Source: Escherichia phage UP19. Taken from it: 64,000 nucleotides of DNA. Below, piece by piece: positions 1,503 to 12,625 of the stretch. How positions within the stretch are numbered: position 1 is the first letter of the stretch; every line of letters starts with the position of its first letter. A program made the position numbers and the translations under genes. Under the pieces are notes generated by a model that was given only the letters and a program-made list of their open reading frames with translations, was not told the origin of the DNA and ran no database searches. Location: sequence record OX638288; one strand, given 5' to 3'.

Positions 1503-2785
1503 TAATCAGCCTCGTAAATAATTGCTGGAAGTTTAACACCAAGCAGATAAGACATATTGCTCTGACCAGCCATTAAATCCATATTGGTTGCATCGATAAC
1601 ACGAGCTTCTTTATCGTCTTTAGCTACGGTGTACGGGTTAGCGGACAGTGCATAACGAACCATCAGAGAAATAGAAGGCTGTAATGAATCAGGGTCGACA
1701 ATAACCTTATAAGCACCAACGTGTTCTTGGTCATCTAAATCCAGGCCTTCTGTGTATGGGGCATAGAAAATAGAACCGACAACTTCATTACCTCCATAGT
1801 TCTCTTTAACACCTACGATAACATAATCCAATGGGCTGTTAACGTCACAGAACAGAGGTAATCCATTCAACAAATAACCATAGGCAGTTTCTGGGAGCCA
1901 ATTATTATCTTCAGGTTTATGTTTTAACCAGCCAGAACCTGCAAGCATTGCAGCCACACGACTTGAAGCCACAACAAACGTGCCGGAATAAGAAGTAGTT
2001 TTCTGGATTTCAGAATTCATCTCACAAACAATTTCATAAAGTTTACGTGCGGATTCCGGAGCACTGGCATAAGTCAAATCGATGATGCCATTATCAGATA
2101 CACCAGTAACTTTATAGCGTTTAGATACGGTTATTAGAGATTGCAGAACGTCTTTATTAATTTCATCTGCCATTACTGTAGCCAGGAGGTCTTCTAAGAA
2201 TGCAGGGGCGTCGAAGCCATTTGATTCCATATCCTGTGCCAATTCTACGGTCAAAGCAGTCTTCAATTTACGGGTCTTAACAGGAGCATTCCATTTATTA
2301 ACCTGGAATACGGCGTCAGAGATTTCTACATCACTCGCTTCGAATTTAGTGGTATGAGCAGCGTCCGGAACCAGACGACATGTTAATGACACCAAACCTT
2401 CTTGAAGAGCATCAGCCAATCCTGTAGCGCTAGTAGATGCGAGTGGGCTTGCTTGAAGAGCCTTATAAACCACATTCTGATACTTAAAGTAGTCACCCTT
2501 GGCAATAGCCTGGGCTTTATCTGTGAGTTCCTGGATAGTTTCACGGTCTTTAGAACCAACTTCACCACCATAAACAGCACCAGTTTGGAAACTGAATTCA
2601 TTATCAGGGGTAAGATATTTGACACCATACAATGCAGCAATAGGCTGACTAGTACGTTGTTCAGCGATGATATCGCGATAAATTAGTTTAGTGGTAGCAC
2701 GGGTCAAAGCAACAAGATTAGGGCGACCCAATGAGTTGCTGGTAGTAGTTGTTGACTCGCGCAGTAATTCGTTAATCTTTGCCAT
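1502..2785 (-). CDS. 24: gp24 head vertex protein
   Basis: 427 aa, same length as T4 gp24; N-terminus MAKINELLREST and most of the length match T4 gp24 as remembered. Confidence 0.9.
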   Translation of the reverse strand: MAKINELLRESTTTTSNSLGRPNLVALTRATTKLIYRDIIAEQRTSQPIAALYGVKYLTPDNEFSFQTGAVYGGEVGSKDRETIQELTDKAQAIAKGDYFKYQNVVYKALQASPLASTSATGLADALQEGLVSLTCRLVPDAAHTTKFEASDVEISDAVFQVNKWNAPVKTRKLKTALTVELAQDMESNGFDAPAFLEDLLATVMADEINKDVLQSLITVSKRYKVTGVSDNGIIDLTYASAPESARKLYEIVCEMNSEIQKTTSYSGTFVVASSRVAAMLAGSGWLKHKPEDNNWLPETAYGYLLNGLPLFCDVNSPLDYVIVGVKENYGGNEVVGSIFYAPYTEGLDLDDQEHVGAYKVIVDPDSLQPSISLMVRYALSANPYTVAKDDKEARVIDATNMDLMAGQSNMSYLLGVKLPAIIYEAD

Positions 2786-2813
2786 TGCGCTTTCCTTATT
2801 GAGGGTATATGTT

Positions 2814-2821
2814 TATTTATA
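2814..2821 (-). promoter_or_regulatory. T4-type late promoter (TATAAATA) for gene 24
   Basis: Plus-strand TATTTATA is TATAAATA on the minus strand, about 30 bp upstream of the gene 24 ATG. Confidence 0.6.
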
Positions 2822-2827
2822 AAAGTT

Positions 2828-2857
2828 GTTTACAGCAAGGTTCCCACGTGTTACTAT
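2828..2857 (+). promoter_or_regulatory. Early sigma70-type promoter (GTTTAC, 18 bp, TACTAT) of the conserved module family
   Basis: GTTTAC at 2828-2833 and TACTATAGTCCTATCAA box; drives the opposite-strand seg cassette. Confidence 0.55.
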
Positions 2858-2886
2858 AGTCCTATCAAAACATGAGGAGATTAAAA

Positions 2887-3156
2887 ATGGACAAGTTAAA
2901 CTTTATTCGTACTACTCTTTCAGCTCTTGATAAAGACATCAAAGCCTTGGTAGAAAAATATGGTTCCAATCCTAATGGTAATGCAGTGAACGCGTTAGTT
3001 AAGAAATACGAAACCATGGCTTATGCTACTGACTTCTGGTGGAATGGTGAATACTCTACCCATACCAAAGACAAATCCGGTAACTGGCTGAAAATCCAAG
3101 AAAATCGTATTGACTTCCGTGATATCATCAACCGCCGGGTCAAAGTAGAGGCCTAA
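2887..3156 (+). CDS. Hypothetical small protein, first gene of the seg cassette
   Basis: ATG at 2887 with GAGGAG SD at 2864-2869; the ORF-track start at 2872 lies inside the SD. Confidence 0.45.
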   Translation: MDKLNFIRTTLSALDKDIKALVEKYGSNPNGNAVNALVKKYETMAYATDFWWNGEYSTHTKDKSGNWLKIQENRIDFRDIINRRVKVEA

Positions 3157-3159
3157 AAT

Positions 3160-3819
3160 ATGAATTATTTAATTTATAAAATAACTAATCTCATTAATAA
3201 CAAGATTTATGTTGGAGCCCATGCAACCGTAGATATCAACGATTCTTATATGGGCTCCGGGGTTAACGTAGTAAAATCCATAAAGAAATACGGATTGGAG
3301 AATTTTAAAAAGGAAATCCTTTTCAATTTCGAAACATCTGAAGAGATGTATGCTAAAGAAGCCGAACTAGTTGATGAGGCTTTTGTCATGAGAACAGATA
3401 CCTATAATGCGGCCATAGGCGGTAAGGGTAATCCTGTTATAGTAGCTTTACAGGAACCTGGGTATCGTGAGATGTTATCCAAAAAGACTAAGGCCGGTAT
3501 GACTGAAGAAGTTCGGGCCAAAATATCTAAAAAGAAATTAGGTTCTAAAGAATCTAAAGAACATCGAGAAAACAAATCTATAGCAAATAAAAAGTTTTAT
3601 AAAAATAGAGATTCTCATCTTAAAGGTAGAAAACTATCAGAAGAGCATAAAGCAAAAATTAGAAAGAATTCTAATAAAGGTAAGAAATTTGTATTTGTGG
3701 ATATTTCTATTAAAGGTCATGAATTTAACCACTACGATTACGCTGCCGAATTCTTTAACGTATCCGCAAAAACTATAAGAAATTGGATTAATGAACGCGA
3801 TGATTGTTTTAAGCTATAG
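3160..3819 (+). CDS. GIY-YIG homing endonuclease (seg-like; same position as T4 segD)
   Basis: N-terminal YLIYKITN..KIYVGAH and YMGSG..NAAIGG match the GIY-YIG fold; basic C-terminal tail; 219 aa; opposite strand to 23 and 24. Confidence 0.7.
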   Translation: MNYLIYKITNLINNKIYVGAHATVDINDSYMGSGVNVVKSIKKYGLENFKKEILFNFETSEEMYAKEAELVDEAFVMRTDTYNAAIGGKGNPVIVALQEPGYREMLSKKTKAGMTEEVRAKISKKKLGSKESKEHRENKSIANKKFYKNRDSHLKGRKLSEEHKAKIRKNSNKGKKFVFVDISIKGHEFNHYDYAAEFFNVSAKTIRNWINERDDCFKL

Positions 3820-3829
3820 AAACAAGAAT

Positions 3830-3847
3830 GGGAGACCGGAGTCTCCC
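3830..3847. terminator. Hairpin terminator between the convergent seg-like gene and gene 23
   Basis: GGGAGAC-CGGA-GTCTCCC; near-identical hairpins recur at 41800 and 42859. Confidence 0.5.
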
Positions 3848-3876
3848 ATAAGGTTATGTATTTTAACGTTAAAGCA

Positions 3877-5436
3877 TTAAATTCCTTTAACGTAGACGCG
3901 TCTAAAGTAACCATTCAGACCAAGGCTATTAACAATGTCCGGCATGCCGTTCTGAATGCGCTTGGTCGGAGCCTGAGCAGCAGGGTCAGCAAACGGGTTA
4001 ATACCGATACCGTAACGAGTTTTGAAGCCCATTACCGGCTGGAAGTTCTTCGGATCGGAACCGCGCAGTGGGGTCAGTGCAACGTAAGGAGCGTAGTAGA
4101 TACCTGCGTCCATTTCGTTGGAACCTTTATAACCGATAGTGAAGTAATCAGCACGGGCATACTGGTCGATGTAAACGCGATATTTACCACCAAGAACACC
4201 GGCAAATACTGCTTTAGTGGTGTCAACGTTGAAACCTTGACCCAGACCCTGAGCGGCATAACTTACAGAAGTATCAACTGCAGCCAGTACGTTAACTACG
4301 TTACGGGAAGCGATGATGAAGTTACCAGCACCACGACCGGTCTGACGAGCGATTTCGGCTGCTTCTTTATCAATCTGGAACAGAAGGGCTTTAAAGCTCT
4401 CACCGGCCCAACGAGCACCACGGATATCAATCGGGTCCTGGAAGTCAAACACACCAGCTTTAGCGCCAACGGTGTTGGTCATACCGGATTTACCAACCTG
4501 TGCAGAGTAGTTAATCCAATCGATAACTTCACGGTTGATTTCCAGCATAATTTCGGTAGCCAGAATACCACTCAATTCAGCATCTGCATCCATACCGTGT
4601 ACTGCACGAAGGTCCTGTGCCAGTTCGATGGAGTAGCTTGCTTTCAGCTGACGGGATTTAGCTTCGATAACTTGTTTATCGATACGGAAGCCCATTTCGT
4701 TCCACGGGTTATCAGTAGAACCGTTGAAGCCTTCCTGAAGTTCAGCGATAGAAGTAGCCATACCTTCAGCCAATTCAGCCAGCTGACCAGCTTCTAACAG
4801 AGCGGTTACGGCAACATCCAGTTTAGCGGCATCGGTAGCAGCGGCATCAACGGTTACGGCTTCAACAGCCTGGAAGTGTGCAGAACCGGTAGCTTCGAAG
4901 AAGTGAGAATAAATTTTACCAACTTCCAGAACTTTACCTGCAGCCAGTGCTTCAAAAGTCTGAGCAGCACCCTGACCAGAGAACATAGCATTCGGAGCAT
5001 ACATCGGGTGGAAAGCTTCTTTAGCACCAGCAGCGATAGGGTCTTTACCGTATACTGCACGCAGTGCAAATACCTGGCCGGTAGGGTTATTCAGAGGCTG
5101 AACACCACAAATATCAAAAGCAATCAGATGAGGAATAGCACGACGAACCATACCCATTACTGCCGGCCCAATCTGAGTTACAGCACCAGAGGTCTGGCCA
5201 GCTGCGATATTGGTAGCATCATAACCGTGGTCACCACCGATTTCAGCTTCAGTCAGGAAAGAACCAAATGCTTCGGAGATTTTTTCGTCACGATATTCAG
5301 GAGCGGTCAGAATATCTTGTTCCTGGTTTTCAAAGATTTTAGCGATGATAGCTTGTTTAGAAGCACCAACGATTTCAGGAAGAGCTTCGTTTTCCAGCAG
5401 AGCGGACCATTTTTGAACTAATGCATTCTTTTTCAT
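3877..5436 (-). CDS. 23: gp23 major capsid protein
   Basis: 519 aa; ..LPEIVGASKQAIIAKIFENQE.. and gp23/gp24-family blocks; position after 22. Confidence 0.92.
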   Translation of the reverse strand: MKKNALVQKWSALLENEALPEIVGASKQAIIAKIFENQEQDILTAPEYRDEKISEAFGSFLTEAEIGGDHGYDATNIAAGQTSGAVTQIGPAVMGMVRRAIPHLIAFDICGVQPLNNPTGQVFALRAVYGKDPIAAGAKEAFHPMYAPNAMFSGQGAAQTFEALAAGKVLEVGKIYSHFFEATGSAHFQAVEAVTVDAAATDAAKLDVAVTALLEAGQLAELAEGMATSIAELQEGFNGSTDNPWNEMGFRIDKQVIEAKSRQLKASYSIELAQDLRAVHGMDADAELSGILATEIMLEINREVIDWINYSAQVGKSGMTNTVGAKAGVFDFQDPIDIRGARWAGESFKALLFQIDKEAAEIARQTGRGAGNFIIASRNVVNVLAAVDTSVSYAAQGLGQGFNVDTTKAVFAGVLGGKYRVYIDQYARADYFTIGYKGSNEMDAGIYYAPYVALTPLRGSDPKNFQPVMGFKTRYGIGINPFADPAAQAPTKRIQNGMPDIVNSLGLNGYFRRVYVKGI

Positions 5437-6939: not shown

Positions 6940-7367
6940 TAGTTAAGTCCAAAGGCTTTACGTTTAGAACGAGCTTTCTTACGCTTACGTTCGGCACGTA
7001 CTTGAATAGATGGATTAGCACGTTTGGTTTTAGATGCTTTGCGAGCAATCTGACGGCGTTTTGCTTTAGACAACCCGGTCGTTTGATAAGCGTTGCGTTG
7101 ACGGGTTTTAATATCTTTAGTACGAGTAAGCTCACCTTTAGAAGAGACGTGCTTAACGATAAATTCGTTAAGAGCCATATTTTCATTCAAAGAGGCGATG
7201 GCAATAGCTGTATCGATATCGCCATCAGCAATCATGTTCTCTACAAGATTATTTATATCGCTTTTCTCGAGGGCTTCAGAAAGAGTAGCAAAACGTCCCT
7301 GTGCTTCTGGAATTTTGGCCTCTACGCTTTCTAGAGTTAATTCGTAATCATCAGGGATAAGGAACAT
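6939..7367 (-). CDS. 68: gp68 prohead core protein
   Basis: 142 aa; basic N-terminus; synteny 67-68-21. Confidence 0.7.
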
Positions 7368-9825: not shown

Positions 9826-9972
9826 ACAGTTGATAAATCATATTCCTGATAGTTAATCACTCCCAGGCGCAATTCTACGTGATATACGCTGTAACCAAAC
9901 ACATGGTATAATGGTTTTAGGTTCTTTATATTACAGCCTGGGATAATAGATTATACTAATAATATAATTTAT

Positions 9973-10614
9973 TTAGGATAGTAAGTCCCATAAGTCTATT
10001 GAACTAGACTTACTTTTAGCTCTATTAGATTCCCAAGTGATTATTTCTAAATTTGATAGTTGGGCTATCATTTCAGGAGGAAGATGATTATAAAATCCGT
10101 AAGCTATAGAAACCTTATGGTCTAATTGATACGCACCTTCAACTCCACATCGCCCTATTTTATCCGCATTTTCCCAAGTCATCCAAATCTTTTTAAGTTT
10201 AGGAGACCTAGTCAAAGCATGGACCCTTCCTGCATAAAGGTCGAATTCCTTTCTATTACCTTTCCATCTAGAATGCCCTTCTCCAATTTGCCAAGGCCTT
10301 GGCTTACCTGCTTGGGTTTTAGAATTGGTCTTATTAGCTTGTTTTCTAGAACACTCAAAACAGTGATGCTTATCGGCCCTATTTAAAAGTTGAAGACTTC
10401 TAGTAAATTTTAATCCGCACTCATCACAAGAAGCTTCTACCTCTTTATTAGAGTTTTTAGGGACCAAATGTATAGGAACCTCTATTACATCAGAATAATT
10501 TACAAGATATCCCAATATTTGACTCCATCTTTTGCAGTTGTTTCTTGGATATACTGTAACAAATTTAGAAATAATCACTTTAGAAATCCTTGCGCGTATT
10601 GTGTATACGCGCAT
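9973..10614 (-). CDS. HNH-family homing endonuclease-like protein inserted between genes 18 and 19
   Basis: CxxC..HHCxxC zinc motif and QLDHKVSIAYGF..NL..ITWESNRAK HNH motif; T4 has no gene here; hairpin GCGCGTAT/ATACGCGC overlaps the start codon. Confidence 0.6.
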   Translation of the reverse strand: MRVYTIRARISKVIISKFVTVYPRNNCKRWSQILGYLVNYSDVIEVPIHLVPKNSNKEVEASCDECGLKFTRSLQLLNRADKHHCFECSRKQANKTNSKTQAGKPRPWQIGEGHSRWKGNRKEFDLYAGRVHALTRSPKLKKIWMTWENADKIGRCGVEGAYQLDHKVSIAYGFYNHLPPEMIAQLSNLEIITWESNRAKSKSSSIDLWDLLS

Positions 10615-10642
10615 TATATTATAAAGCTTAGAGCAAGTAAAC

Positions 10643-12625
10643 TTAAACTAAAGGTCCAATCAACTCGTCAAAATCCGCACCGGTGGATGTAGCCACGAAA
10701 TTTAAAGTTATGTAATTTATCGATCTCGCAGGTTTAACATAGATATTAGCAATAAACTCATTACGGTCGATAACCGCAGGGGTGTTCACTGTAGTATCAC
10801 AAACCACACGTCCTTCATAAATCCCACCAAGTGCCTTAATACCATCTAAGTACTGAGAAACTTCCATACGGAAGCTTGAACGAGTGAAGTTATCGTTCAA
10901 TTCAAACAGTTTATATTTAGAGGCATCACCGATATTTTTCTTAAGCATGTTGAACAGACGGCGAACGTTAATGTGGTCCATCGGAGATGGAACTTTAGTT
11001 GCAGTCTTATCACCAAACAATACGAAACCATCACCACCAGCAAAACCAACAACTGGGTTAATAGCTTCCTGGTACATGCGGTCGCGTTGTGCTTGACGCG
11101 GTTCAATTGCCAATTTCAGAACGTTAAGAATCTGACCACGGTTATAACCGGCAGGAGACATCCAAGGCTGAGACACATCATCAGTACGTGCACACAAACC
11201 AGCCAAATCGGCAGCCAGTGGTACCCAACGGTTTACGTCGTTATATTTGTCGTATTGATATTTATAGTTACCATCAATAGCGGCATAAGTGGTACTGATG
11301 TTCATGTTGTTGGCATCGAAATTACCGGCACCGGTACGCCAGTCAATAAGGTTATCTACTGCACGAGTCAGTGGAACGTTAACCAACAGACCTTTAGGAG
11401 GAGAAATAAATGCTAAGCAATCCTGTCGTTCATCAGCAATACTCACAACGTGTTTCTGAACAGTAGAAGCCACTTCATCGCCTTCACCGGCAACAGCACC
11501 AGCAATAAGCAGGTTAATATGGAGTGCTTCACGGTCGGCAAACAAATCCCAACCCTGCATCAAATCGCCTGCAGTAACTTTATCGTTGGCGGAAATACCA
11601 CCAGACAGATTAATGATACCACTAAATCCTTTTGGCCAGTTTAACGAGGTAGCATAGATGTAATTAGAAGTACCTTTAGCGAAATAATCATCAAGATAAA
11701 TGTTATTACCGTAAACGTCTTTTTCACCTTCTTTGGTGGAAAGTACGACTGATTCTACGATAGCACCATCGCGACGAACGATAATGGCATATTGGTCATC
11801 TGTTTGAGGTCCGTAATTAAATACTGCCTTGACAATAGAAGCACGGGTACCGCCACCAGGATAAACATCCAACATTTTAGAAGAACCAGCTTCATAAGCT
11901 GCTTTAGAAACGATTTCTACTTCCAGAGTAGAACCAATTTCACCAGGATAAAGGGCCACTACGCCTGGCATAGCAAATTTCTTAAGGGCCGCTTGGAATT
12001 CAAGAGAAGTAATAGCTTCTTCACTATTCTCAGCTTCAGTCAAAAGAATACCGGAATCGGTAACAATTCGGCCGACGGTAATAGTACCGGAAACACCCGA
12101 AGAGGCAGAAGTAACTTCAGCAGTCCAAGCCGGGCCTAGGGTAGGATACTGGTTTAAAGAACGCGCGTAAGCAATAATTTTTGCTGACGGAATAAACACA
12201 GAGAGAATTTTACCGTCTGTATCTACAGAAGTCACACGACCTTCAGATTCGACTACAGTTTGGTTATATTTAATATTAATTTTATCGCCTACAGCGTAGT
12301 TGGAACCAGCCGTAGTAATAGTGGTTTCGATATTACCAGCGACAGGAGATGCGTTTTTAGCAAATTCGCGACTAACAACACGAACTGTACGAAGGTCATT
12401 ACCATACTGGAGGAAGTTCATACCAGACATAAAGTAATCTGCTACTTCGTTATTAGGACCTCCAAACAAATCAACCAGTTCAACTTCATTGGTAATCTGA
12501 GTTACCTGGAAAGCAGGGCCCCACTGGAATTTACCAACCAGCGCTGCACGACCCGTTGCGTTACGAACGACAGTACTCTGTACGGACGTTTCTTTGAGCT
12601 CAATGCCCGGTGATAATAAAGCCAT
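10643..12625 (-). CDS. 18: gp18 contractile tail sheath protein
   Basis: 660 aa, matching T4 gp18 length; synteny 17-18-19. Confidence 0.9.
   Translation of the reverse strand: MALLSPGIELKETSVQSTVVRNATGRAALVGKFQWGPAFQVTQITNEVELVDLFGGPNNEVADYFMSGMNFLQYGNDLRTVRVVSREFAKNASPVAGNIETTITTAGSNYAVGDKINIKYNQTVVESEGRVTSVDTDGKILSVFIPSAKIIAYARSLNQYPTLGPAWTAEVTSASSGVSGTITVGRIVTDSGILLTEAENSEEAITSLEFQAALKKFAMPGVVALYPGEIGSTLEVEIVSKAAYEAGSSKMLDVYPGGGTRASIVKAVFNYGPQTDDQYAIIVRRDGAIVESVVLSTKEGEKDVYGNNIYLDDYFAKGTSNYIYATSLNWPKGFSGIINLSGGISANDKVTAGDLMQGWDLFADREALHINLLIAGAVAGEGDEVASTVQKHVVSIADERQDCLAFISPPKGLLVNVPLTRAVDNLIDWRTGAGNFDANNMNISTTYAAIDGNYKYQYDKYNDVNRWVPLAADLAGLCARTDDVSQPWMSPAGYNRGQILNVLKLAIEPRQAQRDRMYQEAINPVVGFAGGDGFVLFGDKTATKVPSPMDHINVRRLFNMLKKNIGDASKYKLFELNDNFTRSSFRMEVSQYLDGIKALGGIYEGRVVCDTTVNTPAVIDRNEFIANIYVKPARSINYITLNFVATSTGADFDELIGPLV

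Follow-up and report, generated by a model that had tools for sequence, protein, structure and literature searches.

The gene segD of bacteriophage T4 occupies positions 106561-107232 and lies antisense to the flanking capsid genes 23 and 24, which makes it the sole T4 endonuclease gene transcribed against its neighbours according to a 2010 review (PMC2988022). The same review reports that no segD-specific promoter is identifiable in T4 and that the endonuclease-specific promoters of the free-standing T4 endonuclease genes are middle or late, and a literature search for transcription data on T4 segD gave nothing usable. According to a 2018 study by Sokolov, as summarized in PMC9523250, T4 SegD reportedly sets off neither homing nor recombination at its site, and phage nuclease genes are known to mark boundaries of exchange (PMC10448857).

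The arrangement in which segD follows a small ORF is likewise already known, having been annotated in phage IME08 (2010) and in approximately 35 other phage records. In IME08 the order is gene 24a, promoter, small ORF (orf166), segD (gp165), hairpin and gene 23, and the same pair is present in JK45, NRG-P0074, F2, AV109, the LF82 series and others; beyond IME08, JK45 and NRG-P0074, a small ORF followed by segD is found in about 33 records. The labels given there are "SegD homing endonuclease" or homing endonuclease for the one gene and "hypothetical protein" for the other. The locus described here, in a 64,000-nucleotide stretch of Escherichia phage UP19 (OX638288) that is referred to as the window, follows the IME08 order. 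It differs from the IME08-type phages in that a JS10-like backbone is combined with an NRG-P0074-type 3′ half of segD, and in a 3-nt insertion which creates a GAGG element before the segD start codon.

Results

Organization of the gene 23/24 junction

The window belongs to the JS98/JS10 group (Dhakavirus) of T4-type phages and is JS10-like, the first 24 kb being 96.8% identical to JS10, the closest genome. A tandem pair of gene 24 paralogues (222-1502 and 1502-2785, the latter designated 24a) and gene 23 (3877-5436) are all encoded on the minus strand and all match PF07068. Between 24a and 23 the plus strand carries, in this order, an early-type promoter, a small ORF, a 219-aa GIY-YIG ORF and a 9-bp hairpin, and an exact copy of the 219-aa protein with identical gene order is present in a Logan contig. 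The four elements are thus all found where the preliminary description of this DNA had placed them, and the endonuclease ORF (3160-3819) is indeed on the plus strand, opposite to genes 23 and 24. That description also correctly placed segD at the same locus in T4, but the opposite orientation, which it had singled out as a contrast to T4, is no such contrast, as the T4 gene is likewise antisense to both neighbours.

The 219-residue protein as a SegD orthologue

The ORF at 3160-3819 encodes a GIY-YIG domain at approximately residues 1-90, followed by a NUMOD3-like linker and a C-terminal helix-turn-helix. In an alignment to the T4 Seg proteins, as the preliminary description had proposed, T4 SegD (NP_049788) is the best match, with 58% identity over the full length (residues 1-219, 221 aligned residues) and a score of 247 bits, far ahead of SegA-C and SegE-G; the subsequent T4 GIY-YIG proteins are SegB (96 bits), SegC (89), SegE (85), SegA (67), SegF (30) and I-TevI (28.5). 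The identity rises to 87% with the IME08 SegD and to 98% with that of NRG-P0074. The T4 and window genes also share the locus, the antisense orientation and a hairpin common with gene 23, whereas the T4 protein is annotated with 223 rather than 219 residues and T4 lacks the small ORF. In SegA, SegB, SegC and SegE the N-terminal GIY-YIG domain is 38-49% identical to that of the window protein, including the YMGSG segment, but the similarity stops after the catalytic domain or the linker, and those genes reside at other loci. With dN/dS values of 0.08-0.17 against the IME08, JK45 and T4 SegD, the sequence comparisons identify the protein as a SegD orthologue under purifying selection.

Profile searches place the protein within the same group of enzymes. 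The NCBIfam model TIGR01453 ("group I intron endonuclease") scores 59.0 bits over residues 5-214 against a curated cut-off of 56.05, and phrog_314 ("homing endonuclease") is matched with an E-value of 9e-53, while the Pfam GIY-YIG families stay below threshold (PF19835, 19.9 versus 25 bits; PF01541, 17.0 versus 22.6 bits). Matches to PF19835/PF01541 are carried by certain database homologues of the protein. A search of the PDB with a profile of 35 homologues returned I-TevI only, with 1i3j matched at profile positions 146-213 and 1mk0 at profile positions 1-83. The AlphaFold model has a mean pLDDT of 83.7, with values of 82-94 in the N-terminal 90 residues, and its best four Foldseek matches are all I-TevI, namely the catalytic domain entries 1mk0, 1ln0_B and 1ln0_A and then the DNA-binding domain 1i3j; the 1mk0 and 1ln0 matches have a probability of 1.00 and a target TM-score of 0.63-0.68. 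The model has the α/β GIY-YIG fold and, together with the TIGR01453 score and the rank of SegD among the T4 matches, upholds the earlier reading of the ORF as a seg-like GIY-YIG endonuclease.

The active-site residues are for the most part readily recognized. The GIY and YIG motifs appear as IYK (Tyr6) and YVG (Tyr17, Gly19) and align with the GIY/YVG of I-TevI, and the catalytic Glu75 and Asn90 of I-TevI correspond to Glu67 and Asn83, with the HMMER alignment to 1mk0 ending at a YN that matches Asn90. Tyr6, Tyr17, Gly19, Glu67 and Asn83 are invariant in the 35 homologues. An invariant arginine is not found in this alignment, and the segment around Arg27 of I-TevI coincides with a gap in the profile alignment; in the window protein its place is occupied by the Seg-type H-x-T...D-x-Y-M-G-S-G motif. 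Since T4 SegA-E share the H-x-T...YMGSG layout, it appears to be a trait of the Seg subfamily. The window SegD resembles I-TevI, encoded in the T4 td intron, in its two-domain layout of a GIY-YIG nuclease and a C-terminal DNA-binding region, and differs from it in the low identity (about 23%), in its location outside any intron and, apparently, in having no arginine aligned with Arg27.

The small ORF

The small ORF is a member of phrog_6003 (E-value 4.6e-49) and is read here as a resident gene for 89 aa at 2887-3156 on the plus strand, with a longer reading of 94 aa at 2872-3156. The start at 2887 is the most likely one because three observations agree on it: a GAGGAG Shine-Dalgarno sequence at 2874-2879 is located 7 nt before this ATG, the PHROG alignment begins at residue 6 of the 94-aa reading, and the gene predicted separately on a contig of identical sequence likewise starts at 2887. 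The gene has a dN/dS of 0.04-0.10, and its divergence at this one locus reaches down to 32-38% identity. It is found at the 23/24 junction both with and without segD, and the earlier view of it as a companion of segD gives way to that of a conserved junction gene. Searches of the Pfam and NCBIfam profiles gave no match. The AlphaFold model of the protein has a pLDDT of 93 and consists of a helix, a second helix, a β-hairpin and a third helix, and no informative structural neighbour of it was found, with BFVD returning just the family's own member.

Three nucleotides separate the small ORF stop codon from the ATG of segD. A 3-nt insertion within the final codons of the small ORF generates a Shine-Dalgarno-like GAGG at 3148-3151 on the plus strand, 8 nt before the segD ATG; the window reads GTAGAGGCCTAA where IME08, JK45 and NRG-P0074 have GCAGCGTAA or GCAGCATAA. 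The small ORFs of P0121 and P0123 also end in ...VKVEA. The GAGG may influence the translation of segD. An RNA structure hiding the segD start was considered and rejected, as the 3120-3175 segment folds no better than shuffled sequence.

Promoters between gene 24a and the small ORF

The predicted early promoter at 2828-2857 on the plus strand is of the sigma-70/T4-early type, with a GTTTACA -35 region, a 17-nt spacer and a TG-extended TACTAT. The hexamers, TTTACA at 2829-2834 and TACTAT at 2852-2857 with the TG preceding the -10, match the consensus in 9 of 12 positions and constitute the sole sigma-70-like site in the 2600-4000 region. Such a match alone is not above chance, since shuffled sequences contain on average 4.6 sites against the one found, and it is the conservation across genomes that provides the actual support for the predicted promoter. 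In the 10 genomes that have the unit, which carry the labels of four genera, the TTTACA and the 17-nt spacing are invariant, and the -10 element (TACTAT, CATAAT or TATTAT) retains A2 and T6, while the spacer itself has diverged to only 8 of 17 identical positions between the window and JK45. T2, in an 11-genome alignment, lacks the element. The T4 early consensus has GTTTAC at -36 to -31 and an A-rich stretch at -40 to -44 (PMC1524935), and the site in the window displays the GTTTAC, a spacer of approximately 17 nt, a TAnnnT -10, the A-rich -40 to -44 region and no MotA box. The early-type promoter that the preliminary description had placed upstream of the small ORF is thereby borne out as a prediction.

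On the minus strand, TATAAATA at 2821-2814 is located 28 nt upstream of the 24a ATG and can be classed as the late promoter of this gene by the known consensus for T4 late promoters; none of the 11 aligned genomes, T2 included, departs from the TATTTATA column block. The late box and the early -35 region, which starts at 2828, stand back to back with 6 nt between them. The earlier claim of an overlap between the two promoters holds insofar as the A-rich stretch of the early promoter (-40 to -44) extends into the late box, but this stretch alone does so and the cores are separate. Judged by the gene order, the predicted early promoter most likely serves a bicistronic unit in which the small ORF comes first and segD second. 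Its distribution among the genomes marks it as a property of the resident small gene and not of segD.

The hairpin between segD and gene 23

The convergent segD and gene 23 are separated by a G+C-rich hairpin with a 9-bp stem, ATGGGAGAC-cgga-GTCTCCCAT, at 3828-3849, which reads on both strands with folding energies of -16 and -18.4 kcal/mol and z-scores of -3.7 and -5.4. On the minus strand the stem is followed by TCTTGTTTCT, and the element has the features of an intrinsic terminator for gene 23, as had been claimed of a hairpin shared with that gene. On the plus strand AAGGTTATGTATTTT comes after the stem and forms a poor T run, and the hairpin may there mark the 3′ end of the early unit or act as a weak terminator. 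In phages without segD an identical hairpin is found directly 3′ of the small ORF.

Extent of the insert and states of the junction

Six phages that lack segD, namely JS10, JS98 and VR5 (labelled Dhakavirus), G28 (Tequatrovirus), VR7 (Gaprivervirus) and JS09 (Mosigvirus, of the RB69ORF188c type), keep the promoter, the small ORF and the hairpin, and these three elements are therefore resident at the junction. In the alignments the indel amounts to approximately 0.67 kb, close to the segD ORF alone, and ends within the final small-ORF codons on one side and at TATAG/AAACAAG, just before the hairpin, on the other. The 1-kb insert with its own promoter that had been described is not supported by this; the comparison with segD-less relatives proposed at the time does reveal a variable element, but that element is the segD ORF itself, and the other three elements stay in place. 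In T2 and many other Tequatrovirus records the junction is empty, with the late promoter followed directly by the hairpin. In T4 a promoter-like site and a similar 5′ leader are joined straight to segD without a small ORF; the site (TTTACA-17-TGaTATTAT) matches the consensus in 10 of 12 positions and adjoins the late promoter of gene 24 in a back-to-back arrangement. By sequence comparison the 23/24 junction has four states, i.e. empty, segD only, small ORF only and both. The presence or absence of segD distinguishes the window from JS10, IME08 from JS98 and VR5, and JK45 from G28, and approximately 36-37 records contain segD as against approximately 86 with a Dhakavirus-type small ORF.

Mosaic flanks of segD

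The region from 3496 to 3910, a total of 415 bp, is identical to NRG-P0074 and has a single mismatch to JK45. The tract runs from the 3′ half of segD through the hairpin and the spacer into gene 23, of which it takes in the final 11 sense codons and the stop codon. Elsewhere in genes 23 and 24 the identity to JK45 and NRG-P0074, taken in 100-bp intervals, is only 54-93%, and the identity at 3496-3910 against otherwise diverged NRG-P0074 capsid genes points to a recent recombinational transfer. In its 5′ half (3160-3495), segD shares about 92% identity with JK45/NRG-P0074 and likewise with IME08. Adjoining the segD side of gene 23, clustered and mostly synonymous differences occupy 3911-3991 (minus strand): the interval 3901-4000 has 16 substitutions relative to JS10, against a median of 1 per 100 bp over 24 kb, and 19 of the 47 differing codons of gene 23 fall within its last 38 codons, 17 of these 19 being synonymous. 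Several of the variants in 3911-3991 are unique among the eight genomes compared. Between IME08 and JS98, the differences near the indel are all confined to 3141-3156 and 3849-3895 in window coordinates.

The small ORF of JS10 is approximately 98% JK45-like, whereas the flanking JS10 genes are not, and the junction is thus a recombination hot spot even in genomes without segD. A reading of the window and JS10 as a simple gain of segD was dropped on this account. As JS10 is itself a recombinant at the junction, the direction of exchange at the left flank of the window/JS10 pair is ambiguous, and the pair is compatible either with a gain in the window lineage or with a loss in the JS10 lineage. 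Comparison of the alleles with and without segD revealed no SegD target site.

Discussion

The identity, orthology and fold of the endonuclease, the gene order, the polymorphism, the mosaic flanks and the purifying selection, all of them computed here, are very probably explained by the insertion of a free-standing segD orthologue, consisting of the ORF alone, into an antisense early unit that was already present. Before the insertion such a unit would have consisted of an early sigma-70 promoter, the phrog_6003 gene and the hairpin common with gene 23; segD now occupies the stretch from the small gene's stop codon to the hairpin. What follows for function we infer, including promoter activity and its timing, co-transcription, cleavage, the target and a transfer by SegD's own cut. 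Early in infection, host RNA polymerase would copy the small gene and segD into one transcript, segD would be translated either through coupling or with the aid of the GAGG that precedes it by 8 nt, and the hairpin would terminate or stabilize the early transcript. By analogy with the characterized Seg enzymes, the C-terminal domain would then bind a long asymmetric site in the DNA of a co-infecting relative and the GIY-YIG domain would make a double-strand break there, the repair of which from the segD-containing genome would carry segD, along with short stretches on either side, over to the cleaved genome. Active homing of the window segD is not to be assumed, however, because T4 SegD is reported to be non-homing. 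Further points against the explanation as a whole are the promoter's match to just 9 of 12 consensus positions, the sub-threshold Pfam scores and the lack of an invariant arginine in the family alignment that would correspond to Arg27 of I-TevI.

The principal alternatives concern what moved and how. That the whole 1-kb block of promoter, small ORF, segD and hairpin is one mobile cassette with its own promoter would agree with the fact that, in comparison to the empty T2/Tequatrovirus junction, the promoter does form part of an indel, that a homologous promoter stands directly upstream of segD in T4, and that the small ORF is itself swapped between lineages, as in the JK45-like copy of JS10. 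Such a cassette is nevertheless very unlikely: the promoter, small ORF and hairpin are retained in the six segD-less genomes of four labelled genera, the small ORF has a long-term divergence of its own at the one locus, and IME08 and JS98 are identical through the promoter and the small ORF to 3140 and differ in segD and approximately 60 flanking nucleotides. It is also unlikely, although somewhat less so, that the segD-less Dhakavirus alleles are secondary deletions and the window represents the older state. The occurrence of segD at the junction of both T4-type and Dhakavirus-type phages would fit a deletion, as would the alignment of the small ORF 3′ end in segD-less phages (AAGATTGCATAG/TATAGAAACAAG) to the segD 3′ end (GATTGCTATAAGTTATAG/AAACAAG) with three 1-nt gaps, which looks scar-like. 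This match, however, is short, AT-rich and found post hoc, and is too weak to rely on; moreover, a simple deletion would not yield the observed reading frame and stop codon, and the NRG-P0074-identical tract argues that segD, or at least its 3′ half, was imported recently.

Somewhat doubtful, yet more plausible than either, is the notion that the SegD-type nuclease has ceased to home or never did, and is kept, for example, for the cleavage of competing genomes (marker exclusion) or the stimulation of recombination, with the patchwork at the junction reflecting general recombination instead of cuts made by SegD. The strong purifying selection on SegD and the mosaic nature of the junction even in the segD-less JS10 would be in line with it, as would the hairpin and flanks, which are alike in the alleles with and without segD and thus present no obvious pair of a protected and a sensitive target. 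The site of T4 SegD is said to have been found by Sokolov in 2018 to be identical in phages with and without segD, which would fit the likeness of the hairpin region in both alleles here. That T4 SegD is reported as non-initiating (Sokolov 2018, through PMC9523250) is a further point in its favour. On the other side, the segD polymorphism has sharp and repeated boundaries at the ends of the ORF, a 415-bp tract is identical to a distantly related genome, and the differences between close relatives cluster at the segD flanks, as in break-induced gene conversion.

Beyond the insertion of segD into a resident unit, a more far-reaching scenario may be sketched, although we consider it improbable. 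The conserved antisense early unit would serve as a natural docking site and expression platform for SegD, which, driven from an early TG-extended promoter, would then act before replication, in contrast to the T4 free-standing endonuclease genes with their middle or late promoters (PMC2988022); the non-homing T4 SegD would be a derived form that arose by loss of the small gene and, along with it, of the natural target context, and the small protein might modulate SegD or the expression of the capsid genes.

The locus has little significance on its own, with the gene pair already annotated and SegD characterized in T4. The conserved early-type promoter that precedes segD both here and in T4 would nonetheless provide a simple route for segD expression, and the natural pairs formed by the window phage and JS10 and by IME08 and JS98 offer clean material on whether any SegD homes.

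The final codons of the small ORF in the window carry a 3-nt insertion (3147-3151), as a result of which the encoded protein now ends in ...VKVEA; the insertion also produces a GAGG sequence 8 nt upstream of the segD ATG. The same C-terminus is found in two small ORFs from the database, P0121 and P0123.

According to a 2010 review (PMC2988022), no segD-specific promoter is identifiable in T4. Directly upstream of the T4 segD gene, on the minus strand at 7254-7282 of the T4 locus, lies a promoter-like site, TTTACA-17-TATTAT with a TG element, which matches the sigma-70 consensus at 10 of 12 positions and is the positional homologue of the window promoter at 2828-2857. Moreover, the 5′ leader of the T4 segD is similar to that of the small ORF in the window.

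In the window, gene 24, which encodes the vertex protein, is present as tandem paralogues on the minus strand (222-1502 and 1502-2785) with overlapping stop and start codons. Two tandem copies are likewise found in JS98, JS10, IME08, VR5 and VR7, whereas T4, JK45 and G28 have a single one. Elsewhere in the window, 692 bp that are extra relative to JS10 (9955-10646) separate genes 19 and 18 and contain a 213-residue ORF on the minus strand (9973-10614), which belongs to phrog_5104, a family of unknown function. A Pfam search with this ORF gave no significant match. Pairs of Cys residues occur in the protein, and near its C-terminus the sequence 'QLDHK...N' resembles an HNH motif on inspection by eye; the gene probably represents a second free-standing mobile nuclease gene.

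JK45 and NRG-P0074 are nearly identical throughout the 23/24 locus, yet they are labeled as Tequatrovirus and Mosigvirus, respectively, which makes at least one of the two genus labels doubtful.

In the segD-less alleles (L006, L007 from JS10, L002 and L004), the 3′ end of the small ORF reads AAGATTGCATAG followed by TATAGAAACAAG, which can be aligned with three 1-nt gaps to the segD 3′ end, GATTGCTATAAGTTATAG followed by AAACAAG (window 3795-3826). The small-ORF end in these alleles may be a deletion scar, although the aligned stretch is short and was noticed post hoc. JS10 lacks segD, but its small ORF (corresponding to window 2847-3137) is nonetheless nearly identical to that of JK45, with only five differing positions, whereas the JS10 capsid genes on either side mostly share 60-80% identity with their JK45 counterparts. 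The 23/24 junction of JS10 is itself recombinant, and this may be the footprint of an earlier exchange.
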